Shown in pieces: positions 6,329-45,164 of a stretch of 64,000 nucleotides of DNA (its first letter is position 1; each line of letters opens with the position of its first letter). The translations under genes and the position numbers were made by a program. The notes under the pieces were generated by a model. It was not told the DNA's origin, did not search any database, and saw only the letters and a list, made by a program, of their open reading frames with translations. The stretch is from Microgenomates group bacterium Gr01-1014_5 (GTDB lineage: Bacteria; Patescibacteriota; Microgenomatia; UBA8517; UBA10165): positions 70,431 to 134,430 of the forward strand of contig VMGE01000004.1 in assembly GCA_007376395.1 (NCBI GenBank), read 5' to 3'.

Positions 6329-6368
6329 GAACTTGTACTACTTTTACTACTTGTGCTACTTTTAGTTA

Positions 6369-29296: not shown

Positions 29297-31084
29297 TTAC
29301 GGCACTATCTCCCTCCAGACTTTGCCTTTGCGCAGAAGCTCACGGGGGAAGGTGAGGAGGAGGTCAGGGGCATATTCAAAGTATTCTGATGCCGTAGTTG
29401 AGTTTTGTCCTGCTCCTAAATCACGTTCTAGTGCCACTCCACCCCAGGCAATGACAGAACCTCTGACATATAGGCGGGAGCTTCCTGCCCCTGTGGAGAA
29501 CAGGCCGTCAGTCAGGAAGATTCCTTCCAAGCTCGGGTTGTTAGGATGTGAGACCTGAGGGTCAAGAGTTAAATTTCCTTTAACGATTGCCCCAAAGAAG
29601 CCAACGCCATCCTCAATGGTAATGTTGTTGCCGATGGTTAAATTACCGTTAACAATTAATATTATTTTTTCAGTCATCTCGTTTAGATTACTATTGGTTG
29701 ATAAATCTCCGTTGCGGTAATTCCAGAAGTAACCATCGGGGCGCTTTTTGTTTTCGTTTTTCAGTTGGCTGACATTAATGGTCGCTGTGTCAATGGCATA
29801 TATAGGGTTGGTAAACACTTCCGGAGGGACACTGCCTGTAAAGTATTCATAGTTATACTCGCGGCCAGTGTAAGGTAAAGGAGTAATCTGCGCCTTCCAG
29901 TCTTTGGAAGAGAGAGTCCCTGCCCCTGTACTGAGTGTTCCAGAGTAAGCTACAACCCCGGGATAACCTCCTGCCCCATCTTTAATTAGTTCGTAGGCAG
30001 AACTCGGAATTGTCGACCTAATGTCTCCTTGGGAGATTAAGTCTCCGTCTTTCACCTGCCACCAGGCAGGAAGGTTGGCACACACTCCCCCCAGGCATTG
30101 CAAATCCCCACTGCAGGACGAACCGGAACAGCACTGTTGGGCAAAAGCGCCGCATGCAACACACACACCGCTTTGACAAATTTGTCCATTACTGCAACCG
30201 GGCTGGCTAAGGCAAGGTGACTGGGTATATGCAGTATCAGTGCATGATCCGCCTCCGCTATAGGTATTGTACGTGCAGGTTTGACTGCCTCCTCCCCCGC
30301 ACTGGAGACTGCAGGTAGAGCAGTTGCTAGCGCCTTGATCACAGGCAGGAGTTACAGGAGGACCCCCGCCCCCAGGCGGAGTTCCCGGAGCATCGCAAGT
30401 CGGGTTGCAATTATTGCCCGTACAGTTGCAGTAAAGCTGACCGGTACAGCAGGTGAGAGAGCCGACATAGAAGCCGCAGTTGCCTTGAGCGGGAACAGTG
30501 GTGCAAGCACCTCCACTACTTGGAGACGGGCTGGGAGAAGCAGTGGTGCCACCACCAGAAACACATTGAGCTGCGGTTGCCCCGCTGTTGCATTGGGAGT
30601 AGCAAGTGCACCAGGCGTCTCCCGGAGCAGTAAATGTCCCATAATATCCACAGTTCGCATCCCACTGTCCTGCGGTACAACCTCTGCAATTAACAGAATC
30701 AAAGTAACCACTTGTGCATACTGGAGAAGGGGATGGGGAAGCAGTTGTTGCCCCGCCAGTACCGCCGCACCCGCTACAGTCTCCTCCGCAGGGGCCGGGA
30801 GGGTTGTTAGACTGTGATCTGCGGCAAAATCCGTCGCAATAGAAATATTCACACTGACTTGGAGGCGTGGTAGTTGTACAAGATCCCTCACCCCATGTAT
30901 CTACACAGTTTTCTCCGTTCTCATCACAGGTTGTGGTACGTTCTCTACCCGTACACTCCCCTCCTGGACAATCGATATCACTTGTACAACCCGCCGAAGA
31001 ACTTGCAGGGAATAAAAAGAAGGACGCGAAAAACAAAACAAAGAGGGTGGACAGAAACAAGGAAATTATATGTACTTTTCTCAT
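29297..31084 (-). CDS. Secreted cysteine-rich repetitive protein with C-terminal beta-rich domain
   Basis: Signal peptide MRKVHIISLFLSTLFVLFFASFFLFPASSSA, >60 Cys, GGTTASPSPSP repeats, C-terminal NGNLTIGNNITIEDG...RGSVIAWGGVAL. Confidence 0.6.
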   Translation of the reverse strand: MRKVHIISLFLSTLFVLFFASFFLFPASSSAGCTSDIDCPGGECTGRERTTTCDENGENCVDTWGEGSCTTTTPPSQCEYFYCDGFCRRSQSNNPPGPCGGDCSGCGGTGGATTASPSPSPVCTSGYFDSVNCRGCTAGQWDANCGYYGTFTAPGDAWCTCYSQCNSGATAAQCVSGGGTTASPSPSPSSGGACTTVPAQGNCGFYVGSLTCCTGQLYCNCTGNNCNPTCDAPGTPPGGGGPPVTPACDQGASNCSTCSLQCGGGGSQTCTYNTYSGGGSCTDTAYTQSPCLSQPGCSNGQICQSGVCVACGAFAQQCCSGSSCSGDLQCLGGVCANLPAWWQVKDGDLISQGDIRSTIPSSAYELIKDGAGGYPGVVAYSGTLSTGAGTLSSKDWKAQITPLPYTGREYNYEYFTGSVPPEVFTNPIYAIDTATINVSQLKNENKKRPDGYFWNYRNGDLSTNSNLNEMTEKIILIVNGNLTIGNNITIEDGVGFFGAIVKGNLTLDPQVSHPNNPSLEGIFLTDGLFSTGAGSSRLYVRGSVIAWGGVALERDLGAGQNSTTASEYFEYAPDLLLTFPRELLRKGKVWREIVP

Positions 31085-31895: not shown

Positions 31896-33215
31896 TTAAC
31901 GCCAAGTATCTATTCGTTGGGCGTATCCATAACTTGTTGGACCTCCCCTGATGCGCCGCGTTGTATATACTGGATCGCCTTTTTTAAAGTACAGATTCAT
32001 AGCTGTCAATGCAGAAGCTATTTCGGTTGATTTATAATGCGTCCATACCTTGGGGTATCTAGCAATGTAGAACCAAATCGAATCTTGCTCCTGCGGAACA
32101 AAGGATATTTCGTTTATTTCGTTCAAATCGTCTTTATTGGTGGCTATTTTCAGTACTAGATTATTACCGTCTACAGACCAATCAATAAGTTTACCGGAAA
32201 GCTGAAGTGTATGAGTTTTTTCATTTATACCTTCTTTACGATACCAAGGCATGTTTAATGCTTTAGCAACCTGTTCCTCGTCATAGATAAATCCTCCCGG
32301 CGGCAACGGAGGTACATTTACGGTCGGTTCTGTCTTTACCGGTTGTTCAGGTTGAGCCGAGAAATTGCCAAAGTTTAGGTCAGGGGAGGCAAGTTGGGCA
32401 TCGCGTGGGACGAGACCTGCGGCTTTGGCGGCATCTCCGACTAAAATTCTTTGAATTAGTCCGTCTTTTTCCCAGCGCTGAACTGCAATTCTCTGCATTC
32501 TCCAAACTTTGTAGCCGCCGTAGTCCTTGCCTTTTGAAGTAAAAACTCCTACTTCCAGCCCGCTCCTGCGGTAACTATTGGCAAACTCAACAACGTCTGA
32601 GGGAACTCCAAAGATGTCTACTCTGTTTCTAAAGGCTATCTCTAGATTTCCGCCGGATTTATCGTCTACTTGCTCATATGGGGGAACAGTAACTCCCAGG
32701 GAACCGTTATCAAGTTTTGCGTCCAACCCTGCTTTGTTCATTTCGTCCAAAGTGTTCCAAAGGCGGACTTCTCCGGTAGTTGGTTCTTCCTGCACCATTA
32801 AGCCTTGATATCCGAGCATATTAAATCCGTCCGGAGCTTTCCAGGCATTAGTTACCCTGTAGCCAAACTGGTCTACTGTATATTTAGTTTCCGCAACAGC
32901 GCGTATACGGGCAGTAACCTCAGAAACTCCACCGTCTGCCTCTGCAGTCCTAATACCAACACCGAGTGATGAAAGTCTTTCTGCAAGACCGGTGGCAGGA
33001 TTTGTTCCTTTAGCCTCCGAAACAATTGGTTTAGGTGGCTGTGGAACGGTTACCTCAGGGCTAAGAGCTGCTGCTCCTGCAGCAATTGAACTCACTCCCA
33101 CCAGTCGGAGTGCTCTGCTCCAGAAAGAAGGTCTGGTATCTCTGTGTTGGACTGAGCCTGTAACTGTACCTATTTCTTGTCGGCTTGGCATTGGCTTCTC
33201 CTCGGAATCTGGCAT
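31896..33215 (-). CDS. Hypothetical secreted protein
   Basis: 439 aa; N-terminal RPSFWSRALRLVGVSSIAAGAAA signal/Tat-like region. Confidence 0.5.
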   Translation of the reverse strand: MPDSEEKPMPSRQEIGTVTGSVQHRDTRPSFWSRALRLVGVSSIAAGAAALSPEVTVPQPPKPIVSEAKGTNPATGLAERLSSLGVGIRTAEADGGVSEVTARIRAVAETKYTVDQFGYRVTNAWKAPDGFNMLGYQGLMVQEEPTTGEVRLWNTLDEMNKAGLDAKLDNGSLGVTVPPYEQVDDKSGGNLEIAFRNRVDIFGVPSDVVEFANSYRRSGLEVGVFTSKGKDYGGYKVWRMQRIAVQRWEKDGLIQRILVGDAAKAAGLVPRDAQLASPDLNFGNFSAQPEQPVKTEPTVNVPPLPPGGFIYDEEQVAKALNMPWYRKEGINEKTHTLQLSGKLIDWSVDGNNLVLKIATNKDDLNEINEISFVPQEQDSIWFYIARYPKVWTHYKSTEIASALTAMNLYFKKGDPVYTTRRIRGGPTSYGYAQRIDTWR

Positions 33216-33301
33216 ACCTAACTTCTGAATATACTACATTATATCCGGTTTAAGCAAGAGGTGTTAAAATTACTAGAGGTTGAAATTTTCAGCCATGGAA
33301 C

Positions 33302-33871
33302 TCAACGTCTTTCAGGACCAACTGCCCGTCTTCCTAGAACTGATTCAAAAACTAATTGCAATTCCTGCACAATCTCTGCTGCTGGCCGCTCAGAATCAAC
33401 AACTAGATCTGCCTTGTTTATTAGTTCAACCATACCCGCCTCTAACTTCCAGTTGTCAATCAATGCCATTTCCTTTCCTGCTTCTGTTTTATTGGTACCT
33501 AGTCTCCCCTCCATCCTCGCTTCTCGCGTTATTTCCCCAACGGTCAAGGCTATGATGAAAACTTTACAATCTCCAATACTTTCTAATAGAGTTTGAGGAA
33601 TCCGCCGGTCATAAGAACCGTCAATTATGACCGCTTGTCCACTACTTTGCTCTTTAGTGACTCTGACGGTTTCCTGCAACGCTTCATCGAGAATAACTTG
33701 CAACCCTACCGACTCAAGCCAGTGTCTTGTACGTGTGTATCCCTCTCGTTCCGCAAGCTGGTGAAGAATTTCCCGTTCGCCCACAATAGGAATGCCTAAT
33801 CTTTCTCTAAGAAAACGTGCGATTGTTGTTTTACCTGTAGCCGACAAACCTGTAAACAAAAAAATATTCAT
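33302..33871 (-). CDS. P-loop kinase-like ATPase
   Basis: Walker A FTGLSATGKTT, DxD VIIDGSYD; start at M27 of ORF 33302..33949 giving ATGA overlap with upstream NUDIX gene. Confidence 0.55.
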   Translation of the reverse strand: MNIFLFTGLSATGKTTIARFLRERLGIPIVGEREILHQLAEREGYTRTRHWLESVGLQVILDEALQETVRVTKEQSSGQAVIIDGSYDRRIPQTLLESIGDCKVFIIALTVGEITREARMEGRLGTNKTEAGKEMALIDNWKLEAGMVELINKADLVVDSERPAAEIVQELQLVFESVLGRRAVGPERR

Positions 33872-34281
33872 AGGTTGAGTAATGTTAATACTTCTTTTAT
33901 ACCCGGAACCAGCTTGGGCATTTTTCGTGCTTGCGCTAGGTTCACCCATTTGTATTCCGAGTGTTCTTTACTTAATAAAATCTTTCCTTTGTAGTGTGTG
34001 AGCATAATAATTCGCAAAAGATGTAGACGTTTTCCTGCAACTGAGAATGTTTTGGAACATACATCAAAACTTTCGGCATCTTTCAATTTAAGTCCCAGTT
34101 CTTCGTCAAGTTCGCGAGCAAGAGTTTCTCTTGGTTGTTCACCAAATTCCATTTTTCCTTCTGGTAGCTGCCAATACTCTTGAAAACTCTTATTGGTTTT
34201 AGAGCGCTTGAGAAGAAGGATTCTTTCTTGAGCATCGCACAGAACGCCAGTCACTAATATAACAAAGCCGTTATCTCTCAC
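33868..34281 (-). CDS. NUDIX hydrolase
   Basis: Canonical Nudix box GKMEFGEQPRETLARELDEELGL. Confidence 0.75.
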   Translation of the reverse strand: MRDNGFVILVTGVLCDAQERILLLKRSKTNKSFQEYWQLPEGKMEFGEQPRETLARELDEELGLKLKDAESFDVCSKTFSVAGKRLHLLRIIMLTHYKGKILLSKEHSEYKWVNLAQARKMPKLVPGIKEVLTLLNL

Positions 34282-34501
34282 AAACCTCCCTTATTTTTTT
34301 TGGGAGCATTGAGAAGATTGTTGCAAGCTCTCTATCGGGATACGCCCTGGAGAGCATGTTGGCCTGGGAATCCATCAGCTGGATATATTTATCTACATTA
34401 CCAAGTAAAATTTTAAGCAGTTCTGAAGAGTGCCCGACGGCCTTTATTATCCCAGCCATAGATTTTCTATTATATCCTGCTTGTGCAAGAAGTATCAACA
34501 A
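34271..34501 (-). CDS. Hypothetical small protein
   Basis: 76 aa ORF only. Confidence 0.2.
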   Translation of the reverse strand: MLILLAQAGYNRKSMAGIIKAVGHSSELLKILLGNVDKYIQLMDSQANMLSRAYPDRELATIFSMLPKKIREVCER

Positions 34502-34534
34502 TACTACAGGTATGTTTAGGAGTGCAACTTTTTA

Positions 34535-35506
34535 TCAAGAGGGAAAATGAGGAACTCTTAGTATTTTGGAGTTATTGCTTCTAAGAAAGTTTCCAATCCG
34601 ACTCTTATTCCCACAAATAAACTTTTTTATTGTCAATAGAGAAGGCACCGTACTTGCACCTATTCCCCCAAGTTTTTCTTTCTCAGCTATTTTTAAACTC
34701 GCATATAGAGAGGCAAATAAAGCTGCTTCTTTTAAATCTTGATACTGTAGAAAATGTATAATAAAAGCAGTTGCATAGACGTCTCCCGCACCGGACAGGT
34801 TTACAGGCTCATTAGAAGATAACTCAAAGGCCTTGATTCTTATGGGTTCTTTTGGGGTATTTTTATAAACAAGAGATCCATTTCTGCCGCACGTTAGAAC
34901 AGTTACAGAACTATGCATTATTAGCCTCTCGAGCAACAATTTTCGGGAAAAACCACTGTTATTAATAGTAATATCTTCTTCACTAAACACTGTAATTCTA
35001 GAGTAAGAAAGCGAGGATATTTTTCTCCAAACGATTTGTTTAACCTTACCGCTTTTTTGTATCTTACGAAAGTATCCCTGGGGAGTTGCTGTAAAATAAC
35101 CTAATTTTTCTAGAATAGGGAAAAGAGCCTCTTCTACTTCAGCAACAACTGATGCTATTAATATCACTGAGTTGTCTGGAAAACTTGGGAAAAAGTCTAG
35201 ATCTTCAACAGTGATTCTTTCTTGGGTATCGGTAACTACCTGCTCTCGGTTACCATCTTTACTAAAAAAATTTTTAAAGGAGGTTAAACCCTTCTTAATA
35301 TTCGATTGTCGAATGGGTAGCGGATATACAACAATCCCCATTTTTTCAAGTTGACGGACGTATGGATGTTTTTGTGGTATTTTAGTGATGATATGGGCTC
35401 GAAATCCCAGTTTCATTGCAGCAACCGCCGAGTAAACAACCGCCCCTGATACATGGCTTCTCGGCACGATATCTTCAGTCACATGTCCTATTGTATAAAA
35501 ATTCAT
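34535..35506 (-). CDS. PfkB-family (ribokinase-like) sugar kinase
   Basis: N-terminal GG-like region and C-terminal SGAGDVYATAFI catalytic GAGD motif. Confidence 0.75.
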   Translation of the reverse strand: MNFYTIGHVTEDIVPRSHVSGAVVYSAVAAMKLGFRAHIITKIPQKHPYVRQLEKMGIVVYPLPIRQSNIKKGLTSFKNFFSKDGNREQVVTDTQERITVEDLDFFPSFPDNSVILIASVVAEVEEALFPILEKLGYFTATPQGYFRKIQKSGKVKQIVWRKISSLSYSRITVFSEEDITINNSGFSRKLLLERLIMHSSVTVLTCGRNGSLVYKNTPKEPIRIKAFELSSNEPVNLSGAGDVYATAFIIHFLQYQDLKEAALFASLYASLKIAEKEKLGGIGASTVPSLLTIKKFICGNKSRIGNFLRSNNSKILRVPHFPS

Positions 35507-35653
35507 AATACAGTTTACCCTAAAGTTTTACCCATCTTACCGCTCGCTGAATACACATCTTATCACATAGGATTTTCAGAATTTACCGTTAATCAATACT
35601 ATAAGTAGATATTGGGGTACGTTGAGGTTATAATTAGCAAATTAGTCGGTTAT

Positions 35654-37315
35654 ATGGGCAAGAAAATAGTGATTGATCCAAAAAGTCGTCTATATTTAGG
35701 TATCGGGGGTTCTACCCACGACTTTTCGGCATGTTTACTAAAAGACGGAAAGATAGTATCCGCAATAGAATCTGAAAGGATTAGTAGGGTAAAACATTCG
35801 CTTGATATGTTCTCTCCCATTAACTCTTCCATAAAATACCTCTTACCTCAAAGAACGAAGATTAATGAGATAAGCTCCTCTGACATTCTCAATATTTATA
35901 ATTGGTATGATTACAAAGATCAAATTAAATTTTACAATCACCACTTATGTCATGCTGCTTCCAGTTTTTTCACAAGTCCGTTTAAAGAAGCAGCAGTCTT
36001 TGTTTGCGATGGATTGGGAAGCTATAATCACACTAGTAAAGGGTATGAATATGAAACCTACTCCTATTACTCTGCAAAGAATAGACATATCAATCTAATA
36101 AAAAAGAATGTTGGCTTCGTGAACGAGCAACTAGATGAAACACACGTACACTCTATTGATGTCCCGAATTCTCTAGGGCTTTTTTACAACACCATAACTA
36201 AGCTTATTGGTTTTGGTTTTTTACAGGACGGCAAGACAATGGGGTTATCAGCTTATGGTAATAGCAATAAATATTACAAACAAATTATAGAATATTTTAG
36301 TTTTAAGCCTAGTGGTATTATTAACATATCTTTTGGCGAAAAAGAGGCTAAGCTGTTCTATGAACAAAACAATAGATATAAGTCATCAAAAACCAGATTG
36401 GAATTTCACGCAAACATTGCTGCGTCAAGTCAAAGGATATTAGAGGAATGTTATTTTTACTGTTTAAATTATCTCTATAAAGTCGCTCCTAATGATAATT
36501 TGTGCATTTCTGGTGGGGTTGCCTTGAATAGTGTCGCGAATGGGAAAATTACTCAGAACACACCTTTTAAAAATATTCACATCTTCCCTGCATGTGGTGA
36601 CGCGGGTATAGCAATCGGATCGGCATATTTATCTTATTATAAAGCGAACCGAAGGAGAGTGCTTGTAAAAAATCAGTCTCCGTTTCTTGGAAAGAATTAT
36701 AGCAAAAGTGCAATCTTATCTGCTCTCCGAGCAAAAAGAGTTAAACATGTCGAAACAACCAATGTCTATACGAAGACCTCAAAGTTACTCACCAACGGTA
36801 AAATAGTCGCGTGGTTTCAAGGCAGATCGGAAATAGGTCCTCGAGCTTTAGGACATAGAAGTATTCTGGTTGACCCGAGAAAAAGATGGATGAAAGACTA
36901 CTTAAACAAAAAAGTTAAAAAGCGGGAACCTTTTCGACCATTTGCGCCAGCGATTTTAGAAGAATATGTGAGTGAATTTTTTGAAAAGTCACGAAGATCT
37001 CCTTATATGCAAGAAGTTTTCACTATTAAAGAACCTATGCAAAAATTTATACCTGCGGTTGTACACGTAGACGGAACAGGAAGGATACAAACAGTCGGTC
37101 CTGATAATGAAAAGTTTTATAGACTTATCAAAAGCTTTTACAAAAACACAGGTGTGCCTGTGGTTTTAAACACTTCGTTTAATGTAAATTCAATGCCAAT
37201 CGTAGAGACTCCAGAAGATGCCATTGAATGCTTCTTGCAGACCAAAATCGATGCACTTGTAATAGGCAACTTTATTTGTACAAAAACAAATGACAATAGA
37301 AAGACCAACAAGTAA
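35654..37315 (+). CDS. Carbamoyltransferase, NodU/CmcH/TobZ family
   Basis: LGIGGSTHDFSACLL, YNHHLCHAASSFF, ASKH-fold N domain and Carbam_trans_C-like C domain; start at M15 of ORF 35612..37315. Confidence 0.8.
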   Translation: MGKKIVIDPKSRLYLGIGGSTHDFSACLLKDGKIVSAIESERISRVKHSLDMFSPINSSIKYLLPQRTKINEISSSDILNIYNWYDYKDQIKFYNHHLCHAASSFFTSPFKEAAVFVCDGLGSYNHTSKGYEYETYSYYSAKNRHINLIKKNVGFVNEQLDETHVHSIDVPNSLGLFYNTITKLIGFGFLQDGKTMGLSAYGNSNKYYKQIIEYFSFKPSGIINISFGEKEAKLFYEQNNRYKSSKTRLEFHANIAASSQRILEECYFYCLNYLYKVAPNDNLCISGGVALNSVANGKITQNTPFKNIHIFPACGDAGIAIGSAYLSYYKANRRRVLVKNQSPFLGKNYSKSAILSALRAKRVKHVETTNVYTKTSKLLTNGKIVAWFQGRSEIGPRALGHRSILVDPRKRWMKDYLNKKVKKREPFRPFAPAILEEYVSEFFEKSRRSPYMQEVFTIKEPMQKFIPAVVHVDGTGRIQTVGPDNEKFYRLIKSFYKNTGVPVVLNTSFNVNSMPIVETPEDAIECFLQTKIDALVIGNFICTKTNDNRKTNK

Positions 37316-38483
37316 TAACGATACAGAAACTCTAAAGACCTACCGTGCGCAACTTGAATTATTTCTCAGAGAACGTGGCTGGGAAAGGAGAGATTGCTCA
37401 AGATGTGAAAGGCAATACTACGCCAAAGGAGTTTCGCAAAATTGTGGAGATTCAACGTGTTGTGGCAGTTTCGAATTTCTCCAAGATGTTAGAAGAGAAA
37501 GATCTCTAACACTTCCTGGGTTAGAAATAGTTGTTCGGAATCACTTCGAGAACGCAGGGTTTGAACTCCATCCTCCTAAATCAATTCTCAACGAAGGTGG
37601 TACAACGTTGTTCACGTCAGCTGGAGTCCAGTTATTAGACGACTGGGTATTAAAGGACGCCAACCCTCCCCGGAGACCTCTTTATGTATCGCAACCCAGC
37701 GTTCGTACACAGCACCTTGACAGTATAGGAGAGGGTAACTCTTTGTCTTTTGTAAATATATGCACAGAGGTTGCTAATGCAACTCCAGAAACACACTTCG
37801 TAAATTTAGACCATTGGCTAGACTGCTTGTCTAGACTTGGTCTATATGTTGGAGATATTACCTTGCACGAGAGGAGGCTAATTCAGCAATGGGGAGATGT
37901 TACACTCAAAAGCGAAATTATAGCCATTTTCTATAAAGGACTAGAGATTGGAGACGGAAACTATAATTATGGCTTTACTCCACAAGCATCCAACGCCACA
38001 TTCATTAGCGACTTTGGTTTTGGACTTGAAAGATTGGCGTGGATTTTGCGTAAAGGTTCGTATTTCGACGGAGTAGGACCATTAAGTGAATCTCTTAAAG
38101 GAAACAGTGTTCTCCAAGAATTAATTAAAACACTAACTTTACTCTCTTCTTATGGACTCGAACCCTCAAATAAAGATAGGGGTTATCGTTTCAGGCTTTT
38201 TGCGAAAAAGCTGGTAGCTCTTACTTTCCCTGAACACTGCGTAGTTTTCCCATTGGCTTCATATTACTATAATTATTGGAAAAACTTTGCTGACTTGCTG
38301 ATCCAACAGGATCTTGTAGTAGACATAATACAAAGAGAGTATGACAGAAACTACAACCAGAGGGTCAACTTATTACTCTCGGCAAAGTCTGATCCTAATT
38401 GCCCAACAGAAGAATATCTCTTAAAATTACTTATGTCCAGAGTTAGCAGAGATGGGATTGCTCAAATACTAAGGGGTAATTAA
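37290..38483 (+). CDS. Stand-alone alanyl-tRNA synthetase catalytic-core homologue with N-terminal Cys zinc ribbon
   Basis: TLFTSAGVQ (AlaRS LLFTNAGM), SQPSVRTQHLDSIGEGNSLSFVNICTE (SQRCVRAGG...FFEMLGN), SDFGFGLERLAWIL (DTGMGLERIAAVL); only 397 aa, no tRNA-binding/editing/C-Ala domains; CSRCERQ...CGDSTCCG. Confidence 0.7.
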   Translation: MTIERPTSNNDTETLKTYRAQLELFLRERGWERRDCSRCERQYYAKGVSQNCGDSTCCGSFEFLQDVRRERSLTLPGLEIVVRNHFENAGFELHPPKSILNEGGTTLFTSAGVQLLDDWVLKDANPPRRPLYVSQPSVRTQHLDSIGEGNSLSFVNICTEVANATPETHFVNLDHWLDCLSRLGLYVGDITLHERRLIQQWGDVTLKSEIIAIFYKGLEIGDGNYNYGFTPQASNATFISDFGFGLERLAWILRKGSYFDGVGPLSESLKGNSVLQELIKTLTLLSSYGLEPSNKDRGYRFRLFAKKLVALTFPEHCVVFPLASYYYNYWKNFADLLIQQDLVVDIIQREYDRNYNQRVNLLLSAKSDPNCPTEEYLLKLLMSRVSRDGIAQILRGN

Positions 38484-38489
38484 TATTAT

Positions 38490-39191
38490 ATGATCTTATT
38501 CTTATCAGGGGGTGGCAATAGTAAAGATTCTAAAGAACTCGATAAAAGATTTTTAGATCTTTTGCCCAACAAGAAATTTCTCTATATACCAGTCGCTCTC
38601 GAGGGAGAGCAAAATTATTCTTATCGAAAGTGCTACGAGTGGATTAAAGACGTTTTTTCAATACTGACTAGTAATTCACCGAATATAACAATGTTGACGG
38701 ATTTGGCCTCGGCTAACATGGACTTCTTAAAATCTTTTGACGCCATATACATAGGAGGAGGAAATACATACAAGTTAATAGGTCGTATGGCGGAAAGTAA
38801 ATTTAATAAATTATTACTTGCGTTTGTCAAAAACGGTAAACCAGTGTATGGAGGGAGTGCTGGAGCTATAATATTCGGAAAAAGTATTGCTACGGTTGAA
38901 GAAGAGAATGTAAACAATTCTAGTTCTGACCAGGGATTAAATTTACTGAAGGGTTTTTCTGTAAAATGTCACTATAGAAATACAAAAAGTGAAGTCGATT
39001 TAATTAATAACTTTATCAAGCAGAGAAATGGTGGGGTATTTGCTCTTCCAGAACAAACAGGTTTAATCATTACAAACACCTCAATTGAAGTTGTGGGAAA
39101 TAAGCCTGCTTATGTCTTCTCAAACAAACGACGCGGATCTGCAAAAAATATAGGTAAACTTATCCGAACAGGAAGTTTTGTGTATTTATAG
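38490..39191 (+). CDS. Peptidase S51 / type-1 glutamine-amidotransferase-like protein
   Basis: MILFLSGGG, AIYIGGGNTYKL, VYGGSAGAII pattern of PepE/cyanophycinase-like fold. Confidence 0.55.
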   Translation: MILFLSGGGNSKDSKELDKRFLDLLPNKKFLYIPVALEGEQNYSYRKCYEWIKDVFSILTSNSPNITMLTDLASANMDFLKSFDAIYIGGGNTYKLIGRMAESKFNKLLLAFVKNGKPVYGGSAGAIIFGKSIATVEEENVNNSSSDQGLNLLKGFSVKCHYRNTKSEVDLINNFIKQRNGGVFALPEQTGLIITNTSIEVVGNKPAYVFSNKRRGSAKNIGKLIRTGSFVYL

Positions 39192-40104
39192 TGGTGATGG
39201 CAACTACTGCTTGTTCAGAAATACCAAATAAATCTTCGATGACTCTTACTTCATCAGAATAAGCATGTTTGCTACGAACTACCCCATCTGCTTCTATTGA
39301 AGTTGTCCACGGCTCATCTGTCCCCCATACAAGATTACCCTTCATCAACTGATAATATCTTAATAACGAGCTCGCGGGTTTCAACGGATCTATCATATTT
39401 GGATACTTTACGCTAGTATTACCCTCAGAAACAGCAGCGCATAATTGCAAAAAGGGAGAGCAGTCTATGTATATATTGCCCATTCTCGAAATCTCAAAGA
39501 TTGCTTCCTGGTCAAGTGCTGCCAAGTGTGCAACACATAATCTAAGCTTTGGGAATTGTCGGCCTATCTCTAAAATATTGCCTGGGCGAGACAGTGCATC
39601 TGGACCCGAATGAACTAAAATAGGCAAATTATTACCCTGAGCAAACTCAGCGAATCCGCTTGTAATAAGTTTCTCTGCGCCACAACCACAGGCTAGAGTA
39701 TGAAATTTTAAGCCGTAAATTTTACCTGAATCTAAAAGTTCTCTTAAAAAATCGATCTGCTTGTGTACTTCTGTGTTCGGATCAATACACGCGAAAGGAA
39801 ATATATCTCCCTTAAATTGTTCACAATCACTGACAAGCACCCTGTTTTCTGTTTGATAAGGGAAGTCTTGAAAACCTGATGGCTCCCTTCTCCCTTCCAA
39901 AACCAAGGTTCTTGTGTTGTAATAAGTCGAACCTGGAAATGGAAAAGTGACTACTTTGTCAACACCTGCAAGTCTAGCCTTGAACATTAAGTCGGAAACA
40001 GCTTGTGTGTGGGGTAAGTTTCCTACAAAATAGTTATATGCATCAGTTCCCCCAGAATGAGTATGGCAATCTATGGCATTTCTAATCCCAAGTTCTTTTA
40101 ACAT
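39160..40104 (-). CDS. Amidohydrolase-2 family metal-dependent hydrolase (TIM barrel)
   Basis: AIDCHTHSG metal-binding HxH, conserved His/Asp downstream; 314 aa. Confidence 0.6.
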   Translation of the reverse strand: MLKELGIRNAIDCHTHSGGTDAYNYFVGNLPHTQAVSDLMFKARLAGVDKVVTFPFPGSTYYNTRTLVLEGRREPSGFQDFPYQTENRVLVSDCEQFKGDIFPFACIDPNTEVHKQIDFLRELLDSGKIYGLKFHTLACGCGAEKLITSGFAEFAQGNNLPILVHSGPDALSRPGNILEIGRQFPKLRLCVAHLAALDQEAIFEISRMGNIYIDCSPFLQLCAAVSEGNTSVKYPNMIDPLKPASSLLRYYQLMKGNLVWGTDEPWTTSIEADGVVRSKHAYSDEVRVIEDLFGISEQAVVAITTINTQNFLFG

Positions 40105-41348
40105 CAGTGGTTTATAAGTTTTCCGTCTATAAATTCTGAAGTAATCTTTTGAACCTTGTCTAGATAACTATTAACAACTTTATAGACAACCGCCTTGTCT
40201 GCTAGTGTGACTACTCGAATTAACCAAGGTTTGTCGAGAGGTCCACCGTTTTGCGAAACTATTTCAACAATATTTGATTTACCTGTTTTTTTATATAACT
40301 TAGATGATATCTTCTTGGTCACGACTGAATATATAAAACCAGAATAATACCTGGGATTTTTACCGTTAACACCTTCCATACTCATCGGTCTGTTTGATGT
40401 GATAAGACCGTTTGCTCTATTGCCTCTCCCAACAACACCGATATCACCAGACAAAGATGCACCTGATACCGTAAGATATACATTCAACTTTTCGTAATCA
40501 TCCTTTGTATTAATAGATATATCGATAGAATGTTTAGGTAAGTGTGTTTTAAATTTTCCCTCTATTATCCTACCAATAGTTTCTAAATTATTTTTGTAAT
40601 TCGTAAGGGAATGTACGTATTTTGCAATTTGCGGTATACACAAAGTAATACCAATTTTTTTCTGATTTCTAACAGCCATAATCTTAATATCAGATCCCAA
40701 CCACTTAAATTTCACTTTTGTTTTCTTATCGTTCAAGAACTTCTCCACTCTAAGTACTGCCGTCTCTAATTCTGAGTATGGAGAATATGCTATACAGTAT
40801 GAGGTGTCGTTCGCTACCAACTTCTCATAACCTCTGACGTGTACTTTATCCTTAGGTGAGAACATACTAGCTATAGCTCCTTTGCTATTTTTAATAGTTC
40901 CTGGACCGGGATAATCTGTTAGTTTGTTTTCTATCTTTATGTCGTGTTCGAGATCGACCAGAGGAAAGCGCTCTTTAAAATAATTTTTTATCGACGAACT
41001 TAATATCTCGTTCACAGGGATATCGTTTCCCTTATAAGAATAGGTAATCCTTCCTGCAATAATTACTCTAATTGGTTCTAGAAATTCTCCCCCACCGAAA
41101 TCGATCCTAGTCTTTCCACCGATTATCATAAGCTTGTCTATCTGATGGTGAAGAACTAACCCATCACATCTCTTTGTTGTATAAATGGAATATCTACGAC
41201 TAAGATCAGCAGCTAAACTATCTGCAATACTGTCAGGATGTCCCAGACCCTTCCTTTCGATTGTTTCAAAATCCCCATAAAAAGGGTTTGCATCTACTAT
41301 TGTAAGATGACTCGTCTTAATCCCATTTGGCCCAAAAGATATCGACAT
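40104..41348 (-). CDS. S-adenosylmethionine synthetase, archaeal type
   Basis: ERKGLGHPDSIADS, HHQIDKLMIIGG, NDTSYCIAYSP, INTKDDYEKLNVYLTVSGASLSGDIGVVGRGNRANGLITSNRPMSMEGVNGKNP align along whole length with archaeal MAT. Confidence 0.85.
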   Translation of the reverse strand: MSISFGPNGIKTSHLTIVDANPFYGDFETIERKGLGHPDSIADSLAADLSRRYSIYTTKRCDGLVLHHQIDKLMIIGGKTRIDFGGGEFLEPIRVIIAGRITYSYKGNDIPVNEILSSSIKNYFKERFPLVDLEHDIKIENKLTDYPGPGTIKNSKGAIASMFSPKDKVHVRGYEKLVANDTSYCIAYSPYSELETAVLRVEKFLNDKKTKVKFKWLGSDIKIMAVRNQKKIGITLCIPQIAKYVHSLTNYKNNLETIGRIIEGKFKTHLPKHSIDISINTKDDYEKLNVYLTVSGASLSGDIGVVGRGNRANGLITSNRPMSMEGVNGKNPRYYSGFIYSVVTKKISSKLYKKTGKSNIVEIVSQNGGPLDKPWLIRVVTLADKAVVYKVVNSYLDKVQKITSEFIDGKLINH

Positions 41349-41507
41349 GTTTAATATTTATAAAAACAGTATTGCTACGCATAGCGCGCCCTATCACTTC
41401 TAAATTCGTTTTAGATTGCTTCAAGGTGGCGTGTTATTATAACAAAAACACACAACCTAATACTCTTTTTGAGCAATTTCTCTCTCTTGCACATTCTTGG
41501 TTAAAAT

Positions 41508-41915
41508 TTGATTTTCCTTAAAACTTCCTATATACTCTGCCAAATGTTACTCGAAAAACTAGGTAGCTACCTAACTGCTGCTGAAACCAAAGAGCAGATA
41601 ATAGAACAATGTAAAAAGACAATTGAAAAACTTGGATTGTTTGAAACTTTGCTAGATCTTACCTCAAATAATACTCAGGTTACCTTAGACTTGGATACGT
41701 CTATACCCAATAATAAGATTTATATTCAGCTGAAAGTAACACAAAAATTTCCAGGGACGGCAACCGAGATAACGATAGGGGTTAAACCAGACGAAGCAAC
41801 GGTTCATGGCCAGAAGACAGACGAAGAACGTTATAAGAAATTTGACGTAGTAAATACACCCATAGATCAACTTCAACGGGAGTTTAGAGAAACAATCAAA
41901 GGCCTCGTCTCTTAA
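41508..41915 (+). CDS. Hypothetical protein
   Basis: 135 aa ORF, AT-rich. Confidence 0.3.
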   Translation: MIFLKTSYILCQMLLEKLGSYLTAAETKEQIIEQCKKTIEKLGLFETLLDLTSNNTQVTLDLDTSIPNNKIYIQLKVTQKFPGTATEITIGVKPDEATVHGQKTDEERYKKFDVVNTPIDQLQREFRETIKGLVS

Positions 41916-41990
41916 AACTAAGCTCCTATGGTGCGATTTCTCTCCAAACGAAGCCGGTGCGACGCGGTGAAAAATTGAAAATATTAAATA

Positions 41991-42356
41991 TCACTCGAGC
42001 AAAACTTTGTTATCCAGAATGCTCGGGTATCTAACGCCTAAAATTGTCAATTCTTCTTTAACTTCGATTATTTTTTCTGGTGTGTCTTCTGGAACAGCTA
42101 GGTAATCCCCTTTTTCCAGTTCAAACGTTTCCTTGCCGACTCTAAATACAGCCTCGCCTTTTAAGACTACCATATATTCTCTTCCTTTTGGATGTTTGTG
42201 CAATTTGTCTGATGGCGTACCAGGTACAAAGGTCTTGTAATATATCTCTATGTGATCATCTTTGAAAGAGCTTCCGTCAGGGAAAAATTGCCCCACCAGC
42301 CAGCCTCTCATTGTTTTTTGCTGGACAGAAACTTTCCCTATTTGAATATTACTCAT
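41991..42356 (-). CDS. Cupin-domain protein
   Basis: HKHPKGREYMVVLKGEAVFRVGKETFELEKGDYLAVP two-motif cupin signature. Confidence 0.6.
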   Translation of the reverse strand: MSNIQIGKVSVQQKTMRGWLVGQFFPDGSSFKDDHIEIYYKTFVPGTPSDKLHKHPKGREYMVVLKGEAVFRVGKETFELEKGDYLAVPEDTPEKIIEVKEELTILGVRYPSILDNKVLLE

Positions 42357-42921
42357 TTTTATTCCTTTGTTCGCTCTCGATATTGTTAACGAGTTCTGCC
42401 AGTTCTTCCTCGGTTAACAAACGTATATCTAGTTCTTTGGCGACTTCGCGAATCTTATTTTCTGCTTCGCTCTTCTTGTTTTCATCATCAACGACCAACT
42501 CAAGCTCCAAGTGATATTGCCAATGCTCGCTAAATTTTAGTGCAAGTTCGACTCCATTATATAAGTAATTATTTCTTTTTTGAAAAGAATGCATTATGTT
42601 ATCGGTAACTTTCAGTTTAGTAAATATTTCTACTGCTCTGCCTACTTCACTTTGCTGTACAGGGAATTCTATTTCTTCAAAAGCGCTTCCCTTGCCAATT
42701 CTATTTAATTTTAGAGTTATTTTCGCTGTACCTTGAGAAGTGTTGCTGGTAACTTTCAAAAGCTTGTCGGGAAAAATGAAGAAGTGCACGTCTTTATCGT
42801 CTTCACCCAAGTTTTCTGCGTTTTTATCCAGAAATTGTTTAAGACGGTCGTATTCTGCCTTGTCAAAAACAGACCTAAATTCTATTTCAAAATTTCTCGC
42901 AGACTTGTTCGCTTTCTTCAT
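42349..42921 (-). CDS. CYTH-domain protein (triphosphate tunnel metalloenzyme)
   Basis: N-terminal EIEFRSVF (EXEXK-type start), alternating acidic beta strands; start at M16 of ORF. Confidence 0.55.
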   Translation of the reverse strand: MKKANKSARNFEIEFRSVFDKAEYDRLKQFLDKNAENLGEDDKDVHFFIFPDKLLKVTSNTSQGTAKITLKLNRIGKGSAFEEIEFPVQQSEVGRAVEIFTKLKVTDNIMHSFQKRNNYLYNGVELALKFSEHWQYHLELELVVDDENKKSEAENKIREVAKELDIRLLTEEELAELVNNIESEQRNKNE

Positions 42922-42992
42922 CGCGTGAAGAAAGTATAACAGAGCTGGACATAAGACAAAAAACATATTATTACAATGCTATAATCTTATTT

Positions 42993-43451
42993 ATGGAAGA
43001 TAGAAAAATACATATTCGTTTAAGACTTATTATTATAAAAAATGGCAAGCTTTTAGCTTCATATACCAAAAAACGCGATTTTTACTTTTATATCGGAGGC
43101 CATATGGAAAATGGAGAAACAGTGCTTCAAGGGTGCAAGAGAGAAATTATTGAGGAATGTGGGGAAGGAACTGAATTTACACTAAACAAAATTCTTTATA
43201 TTAGAGATTTCTTTGACCCGGATAACGGCGAACAAAATCTTGAGCTTTTTATTTTGGGTGATATTAATAAAGATAAAGGGCTTGAACACAAATTAGATTA
43301 TCAACACCCTGACGGTTCGATGTGGTTAACCTGGCTCGATGTCGAAAATTTACCTAATAATATATTCCCCAAACAATTAAGCAGTAAACTTTTGGAAGAT
43401 TACAAGCAAGGATTCCCTAACTCCGGGGAATATATTGGCGAAATTGAATAA
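42993..43451 (+). CDS. NUDIX hydrolase
   Basis: Nudix box GGHMENGETVLQGCKREIIEECG. Confidence 0.7.
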   Translation: MEDRKIHIRLRLIIIKNGKLLASYTKKRDFYFYIGGHMENGETVLQGCKREIIEECGEGTEFTLNKILYIRDFFDPDNGEQNLELFILGDINKDKGLEHKLDYQHPDGSMWLTWLDVENLPNNIFPKQLSSKLLEDYKQGFPNSGEYIGEIE

Positions 43452-43530: not shown

Positions 43531-44613
43531 CTAAAAAGCCAGGAGCGCCCCGAAGATTATTAGTAAGAATCCGGCTCCGATAGCCAGGTAAGTTGGAAGG
43601 CTAAACCCGGCAACCGGTGTCTCGCCTGAGGGTGTGGTTGTTCCCCCTTGAACTCCGGAAACAGTAAATGTGGTGGTGTAAGTCCCGTTAGAATCGGTAA
43701 TGGTAAGCGTGTGCGTTCCTGCTGACAAGGTCGAAGGGATGGCGTAACTCCATTTACCTGTTGCGTCGGCCTTGACTGTAGCCGTTATCGGTTCAGATTG
43801 AATTGTAATGGTTACGTTGGAATTTGGTTTGGCAGTTCCTGTGATTGTATCCCCTGCCTTGACCGTCTTGTTGGCTGGCAGTGTGACCGTAGGTTTTGCG
43901 GCTGGCGAGGCTGAGGCTGAAGGCGCTGCTGATGGTGAAGGCGAGGCAATTGATCCGCCAACTGGTGCAGTAGATGGGCTAGGAGAGGCAGAACTTCCCG
44001 CTACGGGAGACGCCGAGGGTGAGGGTGATAACGGTAATGCTGGCGAGGCTGATGCTACCTGTGCCGGTGATGGAGAAACAGCTCCACCAGCCGCCAGAAT
44101 AGATATGGTTGCCGGATTTTTAGCAATAATGACGTTTGTCGCTTCGCTGGTTCCCGCGGCCTTAGTATTCGGACCAAAAGTAATTGCCGCATTCCCTGCG
44201 GCCTTTGCTTCAAATTTAAGTGTGGCGATGGTCCCTTTTCCCTGGGGAGGGTTGGCTGGTTGTGCTCCTAAAGAAATAGTGGCAGACCCGGCTGTATTGT
44301 TGATTTGGGCTTTAGCTAATTCGACCGGTAAAAGTGTCGAAGGAGAAAAACTGGCGAGTGTTAGCTTTTCTTTATCGAAATTAATCTCCAGCTCAGTTCC
44401 GGAGAGAACGTTGGTCGAAGTGTCTACCTCAACCGTAACATCAAAGCTTTCCCCGACCAAAATAGTCTTAGCTGGTTTTTTAATACTAATGGTTGTTGCC
44501 GGAGCCGCTTTTTCGCGGAGATCTTGCTGTTGGCGCATTAAATAAAGCCCGGCTCCCAAGCCAGCCAAGATTAAAAATAAAACAATAATAGCGACAATTT
44601 TCTTTGTACTCAT
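43531..44613 (-). CDS. Cohesin-domain surface protein with Ser/Pro/Ala-rich linker, Ig-like domain and C-terminal TM anchor
   Basis: N-terminal TM, cohesin-like ILVGESFDVTVEVDT...GKGTIATLKFEAKAAG, SPSPS linker, C-terminal hydrophobic anchor. Confidence 0.6.
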   Translation of the reverse strand: MSTKKIVAIIVLFLILAGLGAGLYLMRQQQDLREKAAPATTISIKKPAKTILVGESFDVTVEVDTSTNVLSGTELEINFDKEKLTLASFSPSTLLPVELAKAQINNTAGSATISLGAQPANPPQGKGTIATLKFEAKAAGNAAITFGPNTKAAGTSEATNVIIAKNPATISILAAGGAVSPSPAQVASASPALPLSPSPSASPVAGSSASPSPSTAPVGGSIASPSPSAAPSASASPAAKPTVTLPANKTVKAGDTITGTAKPNSNVTITIQSEPITATVKADATGKWSYAIPSTLSAGTHTLTITDSNGTYTTTFTVSGVQGGTTTPSGETPVAGFSLPTYLAIGAGFLLIIFGALLAF

Positions 44614-44615
44614 AT

Positions 44616-45164
44616 CTAATCAACAATTATATAGCCTGCGGTGGTTTCTTTTAAAACATTAAAGGATTTTTGCACAGCTGCTGCCTGGCTCCCTTCGAGA
44701 CTTAGATTACTCCTGCCTTTTTGCAGACCTTTAATTTTTATTTTTGCAACAGTCCCCTTTCCCTGTTTTGCCCTAATACCTCCAAGAACAAAAGTAACGT
44801 TACCTTTCTTTTGGTTAATCGTTTGCTCTAAAACGTTTGCTTTTTCAAAAAACAACCCAGGAGTAATATCTGTAACTTCGATAAATTTTGGGTTGTAGGA
44901 AAGTACGGCTTCTACTGCGCTTACTGAATCTTCATTCGTGTCGATGTTAATCGTCACGAAAGTTTCAACACCTTTTTTAACCGTAATATTTGCCGGGTTA
45001 AGGGTCAATATTGTTGTTTTTTCCTCACTTAACGCTTGAACATTCAATTTGTTTACGGATAATTTATCCGTACCGGATACAAGATATGAAAAAGTACCCA
45101 CACCAATTAGTGCCAGGCATAAAAAAGCGAGACTCCAGTTTTTAAGGACAGAATTTGTTTCCAT
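44616..45164 (-). CDS. Cohesin-domain protein
   Basis: VKKGVETFVTINIDTNEDSVSAVEAVLSYNPKFIEV...GKGTVAKIKIKG. Confidence 0.55.
   Translation of the reverse strand: METNSVLKNWSLAFLCLALIGVGTFSYLVSGTDKLSVNKLNVQALSEEKTTILTLNPANITVKKGVETFVTINIDTNEDSVSAVEAVLSYNPKFIEVTDITPGLFFEKANVLEQTINQKKGNVTFVLGGIRAKQGKGTVAKIKIKGLQKGRSNLSLEGSQAAAVQKSFNVLKETTAGYIIVD

Follow-up and report, generated by a model that had tools for sequence, protein, structure and literature searches.

A conserved gene module pairing a truncated alanyl-tRNA synthetase-like protein with a methionine adenosyltransferase homolog in CPR and DPANN genomes

A ten-gene island on contig VMGE01000004.1 of Microgenomates group bacterium Gr01-1014_5 has at its core a version of a gene module that is conserved, and has spread horizontally, among bacteria of the candidate phyla radiation (CPR) and DPANN archaea. 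The stretch of this contig that was analyzed, hereafter the window, comprises 64,000 nt; all positions are window coordinates, and the island consists of ten consecutive genes at 34.5–43.5 kb. Five of them (35612–41348) form the functional unit, encoding a carbamoyltransferase (CT), an alanyl-tRNA synthetase (AlaRS)-like protein (ALA), a serine hydrolase of family S51 (S51), a putative metal-dependent hydrolase (AH2), and a homolog of archaeal methionine adenosyltransferase (MAT). They elaborate a minimal module of ALA, S51, and a MAT homolog, to which seryl-tRNA synthetase (SerRS) is often added. We are confident that the conserved module acts as one functional unit, and consider the odds evenly balanced that it makes, as analogy would suggest, an aminoacylated adenosyl-type small molecule. 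A literature search, which was not exhaustive, found no description of an AlaRS-like/S51/MAT/SerRS module, which has apparently gone undescribed so far.

Only 16 close homologs of ALA are present in an index of 5.8 billion proteins, and the recurrence of the same genes around them was at once evident. A pattern scan of 185,579 species-representative genomes yielded 46 ALA loci, a count that is a lower bound. Of these, 21 belong to named CPR lineages and 10 to archaea (DPANN wherever a name is given); another 8 come from metagenome-assembled genomes (MAGs) labelled Gammaproteobacteria, Sphingomonadales, or Bacillales, and 7 from unclassified genomes. When 1.84 billion cluster representatives were searched with a hidden Markov model, at least 279 ALA-family clusters at 50% identity were obtained (E ≤ 1e-30). 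The initial annotation of the island, made from the letters of the window, had called such a biosynthetic capacity unusual for a reduced CPR-like genome; this view is overturned by the finding that the module occurs predominantly in CPR and DPANN.

Co-occurrence was scored within 6 kb of ALA at 62 non-redundant loci outside the window's own genome, a locus being eligible for a given gene if that gene was present or if at least 6 kb was available on both sides. S51 accompanies ALA at 49 of 50 eligible loci and a MAT homolog does so at 47 of 48, followed by SerRS (28/40), a radical S-adenosylmethionine (SAM) enzyme (12/29), AH2 (8/29), and CT (6/28). Among the other island genes, homologs of the NUDIX gene at 42993–43451 (2/24), the cupin gene (1/24), and the CYTH gene (1/23) are found rarely near ALA, and those of the PfkB gene (0/23) are not found there at all; the same is true for the 135-aa open reading frame (ORF), the left-flank kinase, and the left-flank NUDIX gene (0/23 each). 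The nine annotated genes had initially been grouped into one cassette. Comparison of gene neighborhoods upholds this far beyond chance for CT, ALA, S51, AH2, and the MAT homolog, not for all nine: PfkB, cupin, and NUDIX recur once or twice across the loci, and the association of CYTH is marginal.

Gene order and orientation vary by lineage (for example SerRS< ALA> S51> MAT<, MAT> ALA> SerRS>, and rSAM> MAT> ALA> S51>, with rSAM for radical SAM), a variation that speaks for selection on linkage rather than inherited synteny. When loci were instead sampled from the side of the MAT homologs, most of them showed the module once more. The parts are also tied together by Rosetta-stone fusions: ALA is fused to S51 in P0180 and its cluster mates (568–614 aa), and elsewhere it is joined to SAM-dependent methyltransferase domains. 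Recombinases or insertion sequence elements adjoin the module at loci L001, L004, L006, L027, L036, and L040. Tailoring genes in variant loci encode myo-inositol-1-phosphate synthase (MIPS), phosphatases, glycosyltransferases, methyltransferases, ATP-grasp proteins, and a racemase. No relative of ALA was found in IMG/VR, and the search for plasmid carriage returned only a weak, unrelated match to an 'AlaRS-related' 300-aa protein of Rhizobium. This 'alanine--tRNA ligase-related protein' (L064; Rhizobium leguminosarum plasmid pRL9b6, 218263–219165; 27% similar to the window ALA) is a different stand-alone AlaRS-core paralog; proteins of its type are carried by ~50 Rhizobium plasmids and adjoin RES-Xre and VapC-Phd toxin-antitoxin pairs.

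ALA lies barely above the Pfam cutoff for tRNA-synt_2c (1.1e-7; 31.2 bits, cutoff 30.3) and reaches 60 bits against the archaeal AlaRS equivalog, the cutoff of which is 745. Its AlphaFold2 model (397 aa; pLDDT 89.3) superposes as a whole on the N-terminal part of the A. fulgidus and P. horikoshii AlaRS (query-normalised TM ~0.70), as well as on AlaRS catalytic fragments of ~440 aa, with 16–18% identity over the fold. The protein comprises the aminoacylation domain and part of the tRNA-recognition domain, and lacks the editing and C-Ala domains. The zinc ribbon initially ascribed to it is present as an N-terminal CxxC...CGD..C motif, which aligns with the same element in archaeal AlaRS. Motif-2 QPxxR, SF.N, and D...GLER are invariant in 16 homologs, and with them the motif-2 Arg (R139), the Glu and Arg of the motif-3 GLER (E247/R248), and the Asp that holds the α-amino group (D241). 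Because these class II catalytic residues are invariant, ALA probably still binds ATP and an α-amino acid.

Additional synthetase-like genes were seen at two loci. In L059 (489–3801), a second, distant AlaRS-like paralog (ALA2; 373 aa), in which the motif-3 Arg is lost ('GFGIET'), stands in the order methyltransferase< ALA2< CxxxCxxC radical-SAM-like protein (375 aa, no Pfam match)< S66 MccF-family peptidase<, on the contig that, ~10 kb away, also carries the main module; the arrangement is a parallel to it. In the DPANN-type locus L041 (12307–13725), the order MAT> SerRS< ALA> GT1> is followed by a class II aminoacyl-tRNA synthetase (aaRS)-like gene (472 aa; tRNA-synt_2b plus HGTP_anticodon), the third aaRS-type gene within one module.

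The MAT-like protein of the window matches PF01941 over residues 26–410 (1.6e-98; 330.6 bits, cutoff 27) and is homologous over its full length to the solved archaeal MATs, with ~37% identity. It scores 265–303 bits against the NCBIfam MAT equivalog and subfamily models, which have cutoffs of 435–577, and the other module MATs tested likewise fall below the NCBIfam cutoffs. All module MATs were aligned with four solved archaeal MATs and numbered after TkMAT, residue roles being taken from the TkMAT structure paper (PMC3853416). In TkMAT, His33 is catalytic, Asp201 and Asp283 bind the ribose and the amine, Tyr271 stacks on the adenine, and His62, Asn64, and Asn161 bind the methionine carboxylate (PMC3853416). 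All module MATs, that of the window included, keep His33, Asp201, Tyr271, and Asp283; the window protein also keeps Asn161.

Beside these conserved residues, the window protein carries the changes E43A, N64Q, D284I, V314R, H316Y, and K319F and a deletion of E280. The same set, with E43 replaced by A, S, L, or C and K319 by F or I, is shared by all members of a group of ~100 proteins, here termed type A, which includes representatives from the cultured myxobacterium Hyalangium rubrum and an Ardenticatenaceae MAG. At the positions concerned the four solved MATs are invariant, and all of these positions but N64 are also unchanged in nearly every MAT of type B, the form that prevails in Paceibacteria-type modules. 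Type-A MATs have lost five otherwise invariant charged residues and are changed in methionine-side residues; the window protein also possesses a longer gating loop. We presume that the missing charged residues would line the triphosphate/metal site and that type A has an altered chemistry. Type-B MATs, in which all canonical motif residues are kept, are probably genuine SAM synthetases, even if the methionine-carboxylate binders are altered in one sub-group (H62R, N64M). The archaeal-type SAM synthetase of the initial annotation is a PF01941 homolog as proposed, of a remodelled subfamily instead of a plain housekeeping MAT; on this residue evidence a simple housekeeping role was rejected for type A, and is still plausible for type B. 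Among the closest Microgenomates relatives (L001, 4404–5190), a gene for an HD_4 protein lies upstream of the module and is followed by an 85-aa PF01941 fragment, which looks like the remnant of another MAT gene.

The type-A MAT gene is found directly after an orthologous radical-SAM/SPASM gene in 12 of 13 informative loci, the exceptions being L065 and the window. The window copy may be a trimmed or altered type-A version of the module, devoid of radical-SAM and SerRS genes. Where SerRS genes are linked to the module, they are canonical and pass the curated serS model TIGR00414. In L065, two SerRS genes within 5 kb flank AH2 and the type-A MAT gene. The two share 33% identity. One groups with the SerRS linked to the module in L001, L005, and L014 (61–66%), the other with the SerRS of L004 (60%), so that at least the L065 lineage has a second, module-associated SerRS. 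A gene for an Asp/Glu-type amino-acid racemase (6364–7074, − strand; TIGR00035, 156 bits) follows SerRS-2, PfkB, and a 93-aa ORF in this locus, which hints that the L065 variant may involve a D-amino acid.

Type-A MAT genes also stand beside radical-SAM/SPASM genes at loci without ALA. In H. rubrum (L058; JAXIVS010000008.1, 9000–14133), radical-SAM/SPASM and type-A MAT genes are followed by genes for a RimK-type ATP-grasp protein, an AAA_28/thymidylate-kinase-like protein, and a B12-binding radical-SAM enzyme, and the group adjoins an MbtH/thioesterase/polyketide synthase–nonribosomal peptide synthetase (PKS-NRPS) region. As a cultured and tractable organism, H. rubrum offers a means of learning the function of type-A MAT. 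The Ardenticatenaceae locus (L060; JACKBS010000034.1, 722–16630) comprises genes for an APH kinase, an AAA_28 kinase, a radical-SAM/SPASM protein, a type-A MAT, and a GT2 protein. Genes for an nSTAND NTPase on one side and for a Metallophos-STAND protein on the other enclose them, and the contig end bears a phage-type integrase gene, a context that looks like a defence island.

S51 matches Peptidase_S51 (2.1e-29; 103 bits, cutoff 23.9), with a weak GATase_3 match besides, and falls below the cutoff of the PepE equivalog (67 bits, cutoff 156). Its GGSAG nucleophile elbow and the His of an 'HY' pair align with those of Lmo0363 and alpha-aspartyl dipeptidase, the Ser and His being the residues compared. 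CT combines a Kae1-like N-terminal domain (Carbam_trans_N, 8.5e-41, 141 bits) with a YrdC-like C-terminal domain (Carbam_trans_C, 6.6e-70, 234.5 bits), and an HHLCH (HxxxH) motif is visible in its sequence. Among solved structures, it comes closest to the natural-product O-carbamoyltransferases 7xb6, GdmN, NovN, and TobZ (E 1e-58 to 1e-73 for the last three in the PDB). Against the NodU equivalog it reaches 144.5 bits, the cutoff being 1000; judging by these scores, CT is a member of the family and not NodU itself. It adjoins ALA in L001, L004, L005, L007, L040, and L059 (46–70% identity). AH2 is barely above the Amidohydro_2 cutoff (5.2e-6; 26.8 bits, cutoff 26.4) and has no sequence match in the PDB; orthologs with 50–62% identity lie inside the module in L001, L005, L007, L012, L014, L022, L051, L059, and L065. 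CT and AH2 are lineage-restricted tailoring genes of the module.

In the scheme that we favor, the module would build, and could take apart, an aminoacylated adenosyl-type molecule; we infer each chemical step, as well as the biological role, by analogy. The MAT-like enzyme would use ATP to form an S-adenosyl or 5'-adenosyl compound, namely SAM itself in type-B modules and probably something else, or the product of an altered chemistry, in type-A modules. ALA would aminoacylate this adenosyl acceptor with one of the small amino acids Ser, Ala, and Gly, drawing either on its own aminoacyl-adenylate or on aminoacyl-tRNA from the linked SerRS (compare AcmD/AcmF in ascamycin and AbmK/AbmF in albomycin biosynthesis). 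Since the minimal three-gene module has no SAM-using enzyme family, the MAT product itself would be the acceptor; SAM or a related 5'-adenosyl compound would present an adenosine ribose like that of tRNA A76, plus a free amine. S51 could strip the aminoacyl group for proofreading, activation, or self-protection, in the manner of AcmE or of MccF in the microcin C system. In the window lineage, the TobZ-type CT and the Amidohydro_2 enzyme would tailor the product, and PfkB, cupin, and NUDIX may contribute. The extra SerRS of relatives would fit a product or intermediate that mimics seryl-adenylate, SerRS being a resistant or dedicated copy. We think it less likely than not that the compound acts as an aaRS inhibitor, SerRS serving for immunity or supply.

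The tailoring of an aminoacyl/carbamoyl nucleoside by way of an AlaRS-like ligase, suggested initially for the whole gene set, is thus still the best-fitting interpretation, in view of the AcmF-like truncation of ALA, the linked hydrolase, the adenosyltransferase homolog, and the second SerRS in L065. The sulfamate component of that suggestion was not recovered: no sulfotransferase or sulfamate genes are present in the window or the core, and sulfotransferases occur only on the flanks of L006 and L060.

Several observations weigh against an aminoacyl-adenosyl product. Type-B MATs resemble ordinary SAM synthetases, and one type-B-like MAT stands alone, without the module, in a CPR contig (L063); MAT might only supply SAM as a cofactor. 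The adenylation residues are kept in ALA, unlike in AcmF, which makes its tRNA dependence uncertain. The 64-kb window holds neither a radical-SAM gene or remnant nor a SerRS gene, SerRS is also absent from ~30% of the loci, and it is established as an extra copy in L065 only. No transporter or regulator is consistently linked to the module. The non-CPR occurrences would rest on MAG bin labels taken as given, and the mechanistic steps proposed for all components are drawn from analogy.

The module could instead aminoacylate a sugar, inositol, or cell-envelope precursor, in the manner of MshC or of lipid and peptidoglycan modification, with MAT merely giving SAM for methylation. Genes for MIPS, His_Phos/HAD phosphatases, and GT1/GT4 proteins stand directly beside ALA in L038, L052, L041, L054, L055, L012, and L061, genes for VanY and S11 DD-carboxypeptidases flank L053, and MshC, a CysRS paralog that places Cys on GlcN-Ins, provides a precedent. 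Such sugar and inositol genes are sporadic, however, while MAT is a nearly constant partner; the lack of a SAM-using enzyme in the minimal module argues that the MAT product is itself a substrate, and the core contains no Fem/MprF-type transferase or membrane protein. We judge an envelope function to be rather unlikely.

A similarly low probability is given to a role in conflict or defence, in which the radical-SAM and MAT-like proteins, perhaps with a nucleotide kinase, would make a poisoning nucleoside or nucleotide against phage or host replication or translation, ALA being its modifier and S51 the antidote. The pairing of type-A MAT with radical-SAM/SPASM in the absence of ALA, beside AAA_28/thymidylate-kinase-like genes in Hyalangium and Ardenticatenaceae, would agree with this, as would the nSTAND NTPase, Metallophos-STAND, and integrase genes that flank the Ardenticatenaceae locus. 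The radical-SAM protein is weakly similar to prokaryotic viperin (55 bits, cutoff 180), and the GT4 protein of L012 weakly matches 'GT4-conflict'. Against this, the viperin similarity is far under the cutoff, a SPASM domain is part of the radical-SAM enzyme, and radical-SAM genes are lacking in the window; a defence-island context is seen in one locus only, and the ALA family was found on no viral contigs in IMG/VR. PADLOC gave zero matches for CT, ALA, S51, AH2, and MAT, and one weak match for NUDIX (PDC-S07, 4e-4); on this basis, a known defence system was rejected.

Still less probable is that the genes serve housekeeping translation or SAM metabolism. ALA would then be an AlaRS of the split or some alternative kind, comparable to that of Nanoarchaeum, or an enzyme directed at tRNA; SerRS and MAT would be the regular sole copies, S51 would be an ordinary dipeptidase, and linkage would reflect co-regulation only. 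It is in line with this that the SerRS copies are canonical, that type-B MATs keep the canonical residues, that compact CPR/DPANN genomes put unrelated genes in operons, and that tRNA-Ser genes abut the module in L014, L022, and L040. However, the divergence of ALA from AlaRS in both identity and equivalog score, its rarity (it is not universal in CPR), and a host range extending to MAGs labelled Gammaproteobacteria, Bacillales, and Sphingomonadales led us to reject a split AlaRS. The two SerRS of L065, the ALA-S51 fusions, the loss of invariant residues in type-A MAT, and the deviant GC (guanine plus cytosine) content of the window block likewise speak against housekeeping. Screening of 51 loci with ARAGORN revealed no recurrent dedicated or unusual tRNA, a tRNA-Ser abutting the module only at the three loci just named, and genetic-code expansion with a dedicated tRNA for ALA was rejected. 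What was found in the window is thus not the situation under which the initial annotation would have been wrong, that is, ordinary housekeeping genes with neither a compositional break nor co-occurrence. We give next to no credence to the idea that unrelated accessory genes came together by chance in a variable, AT-rich region. It would suit the lack of att repeats or an integrase bounding the island and the little or no conserved association of PfkB, cupin, CYTH, NUDIX, and the 135-aa ORF, and is possible only for these peripheral genes, as it is refuted for the five core genes by their joint recurrence in many independent lineages, with fusions.

The ten island genes are listed in Table 1. 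Pfam bears out all nine domain assignments of the initial annotation, the ORFs lying exactly where it had placed them. It had also described lower GC than in the flanks and two convergent operons, and both are present. GC is 0.371 ± 0.022 in the ten island genes and 0.429 ± 0.032 in the 60 other genes of the window (Mann-Whitney p = 2e-5), and GC at third codon positions (GC3) is 0.328 versus 0.389 (p = 4e-4); the dip is real yet modest, at ~6 points. GC steps abruptly from 0.338 to 0.500 at the right border (43451/43531) and changes gradually at the left one. The core consists of two convergent, tightly packed operons, CT-ALA-S51 with a 26-nt overlap and then a 6-nt gap, and MAT-AH2 with a 1-nt overlap, which meet in a 32-nt overlap at 39160–39191. 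No att-like or flanking direct repeats, integrase, or tRNA delimit the block. A promoter scan of the island gave matches at chance level only, and a search for riboswitches or small RNAs (Rfam, gathering score or E ≤ 1) gave none, apart from one chance microRNA match.

Table 1. Genes of the island, in window coordinates.
Gene product	Position	Strand	Assessment	Best match
PfkB-family kinase (ribo/nucleoside-type)	34535..35506	−	Probable accessory	PfkB, 1.6e-10
TobZ/NodU-type carbamoyltransferase (CT)	35612..37315	+	First gene of + operon	Carbam_trans_N/C
Truncated archaeal-type AlaRS-like protein (ALA)	37290..38483	+	Module signature gene	tRNA-synt_2c
S51-family serine hydrolase (PepE/cyanophycinase-like)	38490..39191	+	Constant ALA partner	Peptidase_S51
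Amidohydro_2-family metal hydrolase/decarboxylase (AH2)	39160..40104	−	Lineage-restricted tailoring gene	
Type-A MAT-like protein	40104..41348	−	Archaeal-type methionine adenosyltransferase homolog, remodelled active site	PF01941
135-aa ORF	41508..41915	+		No Pfam, NCBIfam, or PADLOC match
Small cupin	41991..42356	−	Possible accessory	Cupin_2, 1.7e-11
CYTH (triphosphate-tunnel) protein	42349..42966	−	Weak module association	CYTH, 7.3e-6
NUDIX hydrolase	42993..43451	+	Possible accessory	NUDIX, 2.5e-6

PfkB, cupin, and one NUDIX gene are occasional accessories of the module, and the link of CYTH is marginal. The PfkB kinase (41.3 bits, cutoff 25.8) contains 'SGAGDVYA', with the GAGD motif, and reaches no equivalog. 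Its gene lies inside the low-GC block and is divergent from CT across a 105-nt intergenic region; in L065, the locus nearest to the window by MAT, a homolog (39% identity) comes immediately after the module SerRS-2, on a contig that stops short of ALA. A cupin homolog (30% identity, 120 aa) is located two genes past ALA in L059. The NUDIX protein encoded at 42993–43451 has a complete Nudix box, with a 68%-identical ortholog 2 kb upstream of CT in L001–L003 and a 55%-identical one in L051. CYTH, also inside the low-GC block, recurs once, 3 kb from ALA in L026 (46% identity). The Pfam matches of CYTH and NUDIX exceed the cutoffs by a few bits only. No homolog of the 135-aa ORF was found in any locus outside the window's own genome, and nothing supports counting this ORF as part of the module.

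Just left of PfkB (33302–34281, − strand), a gene for a nucleoside/nucleotide-kinase-like P-loop protein (weak AAA_17/18/28, cytidylate-kinase-like) overlaps a strong NUDIX gene. The pair is thematically nucleotide-related and not conserved near the module; orthology with the AAA_28 kinases beside type-A MAT in L058 and L060 was rejected, as no similarity was detected. A 43-nt direct repeat (33238–33280 and 34469–34511; 77% identical) lies upstream of the gene at 31896–33215 and of the NUDIX/kinase pair. The sigma-70-like promoter matches that score best in the region, two in number (11/12, − strand), fall within its copies, and it looks like a duplicated promoter cassette, going by the sequence. 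Further left (29297–31084, − strand), a 595-aa ORF without a Pfam match has an unusually high GC of 0.51; it is intact in sample L010 and split into three pieces (252, 96, and 179 aa) in L011, which suggests strain-level frameshifts or a hypervariable gene. Directly right of the island, at the sharp GC step (43531–45164, − strand), two cohesin-domain proteins are encoded. In the one of 360 aa, degenerate tandem repeats (43901–44077) occur within a GC-rich low-complexity tract of Ala, Ser, and Pro. This protein also has a C-terminal hydrophobic anchor and is probably a cell-surface protein.

CPR and DPANN make up a large share of microbial diversity and are episymbionts described as metabolically minimal. 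Almost no secondary metabolism is generally ascribed to them, and their chemical interaction with hosts is largely unknown. The module is built on the logic of Trojan-horse aaRS inhibitors: it combines a transferase that resembles aaRS with a hydrolase, a target-type synthetase in duplicate, and an enzyme for an adenosyl compound. It is conceivable, though we would not count on it, that CPR and DPANN commonly carry a dedicated pathway for an aminoacyl-adenosine mimicking seryl-adenylate or aminoacyl-tRNA, consisting of an AlaRS core, an S51 'antidote', a MAT homolog, and a self-resistant SerRS, in which type-A MAT would contribute a new radical-SAM-coupled adenosyl transfer; the compound could be an episymbiont's weapon or signal toward hosts or competitors. 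If true, these lineages would gain a defined bioactive small molecule, and four genes would be a target for heterologous expression. The analysis further defines three uncharacterised enzyme groups, namely a stand-alone AlaRS-core family, the ALA-S51 fusions, and a rewired SAM-synthetase subfamily, the latter also present in myxobacteria and Chloroflexota, where it is paired with radical SAM.

With the archaeal MATs of known structure (TkMAT, MjMAT, SsMAT, and PfMAT), the window protein shares the full-length PF01941 fold and the catalytic residues; it differs from them in the type-A changes at E43, N64, D284, V314, H316, and K319 and the deletion of E280, and in belonging to a type normally paired with radical-SAM/SPASM. 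In mycothiol biosynthesis, MshC, a paralog of class I CysRS, ligates Cys to GlcN-Ins. ALA would likewise be an aaRS catalytic-core paralog acting as ATP-dependent ligase onto a small-molecule acceptor, and some loci carry MIPS, phosphatase, and glycosyltransferase genes. Unlike MshC, it is of class II, the module has no thiol-related genes, and its inositol and glycosyltransferase genes are sporadic. Microcin C relies on aminoacyl-adenylate mimicry, with MccB as adenylating enzyme, and a dedicated serine peptidase, MccF of family S66, cleaves the aminoacyl-nucleotide bond for immunity. The S66 MccF-family peptidase beside ALA2 in L059 recalls this system, whereas the module has no MccB-type enzyme or precursor peptide and its main hydrolase belongs to S51, not S66.

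In the set of roles that it brings together, the module resembles the pathways of two nucleoside antibiotics; the likeness to AcmF/AcmD/AcmE and to AbmF/AbmK was drawn from published descriptions of roles and architecture. The primary work on ascamycin is reportedly that of Zheng et al. (ACS Catal 2024). In albomycin biosynthesis, AbmF, which is described as a homolog of aminoacyl-tRNA synthetases, joins a seryl group to a nucleoside; a second SerRS, AbmK, feeds this aaRS-like enzyme and gives self-resistance (PMC9032320). Carbamoyltransferase, methyltransferase, radical-SAM, and nucleoside-kinase-like enzymes are further products of the cluster, which also includes AbmE, AbmI, and AbmJ (PMC9032320). 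The two SerRS genes of L065 parallel AbmK/SerRS2. On the other hand, AbmF is not AlaRS-like, the module has no thioheptose, PLP (pyridoxal phosphate), or siderophore genes or NRPS, and the window lacks the SerRS and radical-SAM genes.

Ascamycin production in Streptomyces sp. 80H647 involves AcmD, AcmF, and AcmE (PMC12945691). AcmF is a truncated AlaRS-like protein with only the aminoacylation and tRNA-recognition domains, which moves the aminoacyl group from aminoacyl-tRNA onto an adenosine-type nucleoside and also accepts Ser- and Gly-tRNA; the aminoacyl-tRNA is made by AcmD, the canonical aaRS of the cluster, and the hydrolase AcmE reverses the aminoacylation (PMC12945691). ALA has the same truncated AlaRS architecture, and its module, too, has a hydrolase; a canonical aaRS that might serve as supplier is linked in many loci. 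AcmF has lost residues for ATP and Ala activation (N219Q, D232E) and depends on aminoacyl-tRNA (PMC12945691), whereas in the ALA family the Arg of motif 2, the Arg of motif 3, and the Asp are retained. The aaRS linked to the module is SerRS, not AlaRS, and is lacking in the window; its hydrolase is of the S51 type, AcmE being an alpha/beta-hydrolase; it contains no sulfamate or halogenation genes; its hosts are CPR and DPANN; and its acceptor presumably comes from the MAT-like enzyme, an archaeal MAT homolog being a constant member. The module is best filed as a variant of the aminoacyl-nucleoside pathways that depend on aaRS-like enzymes, and as characteristic of CPR and DPANN rather than anomalous in them.

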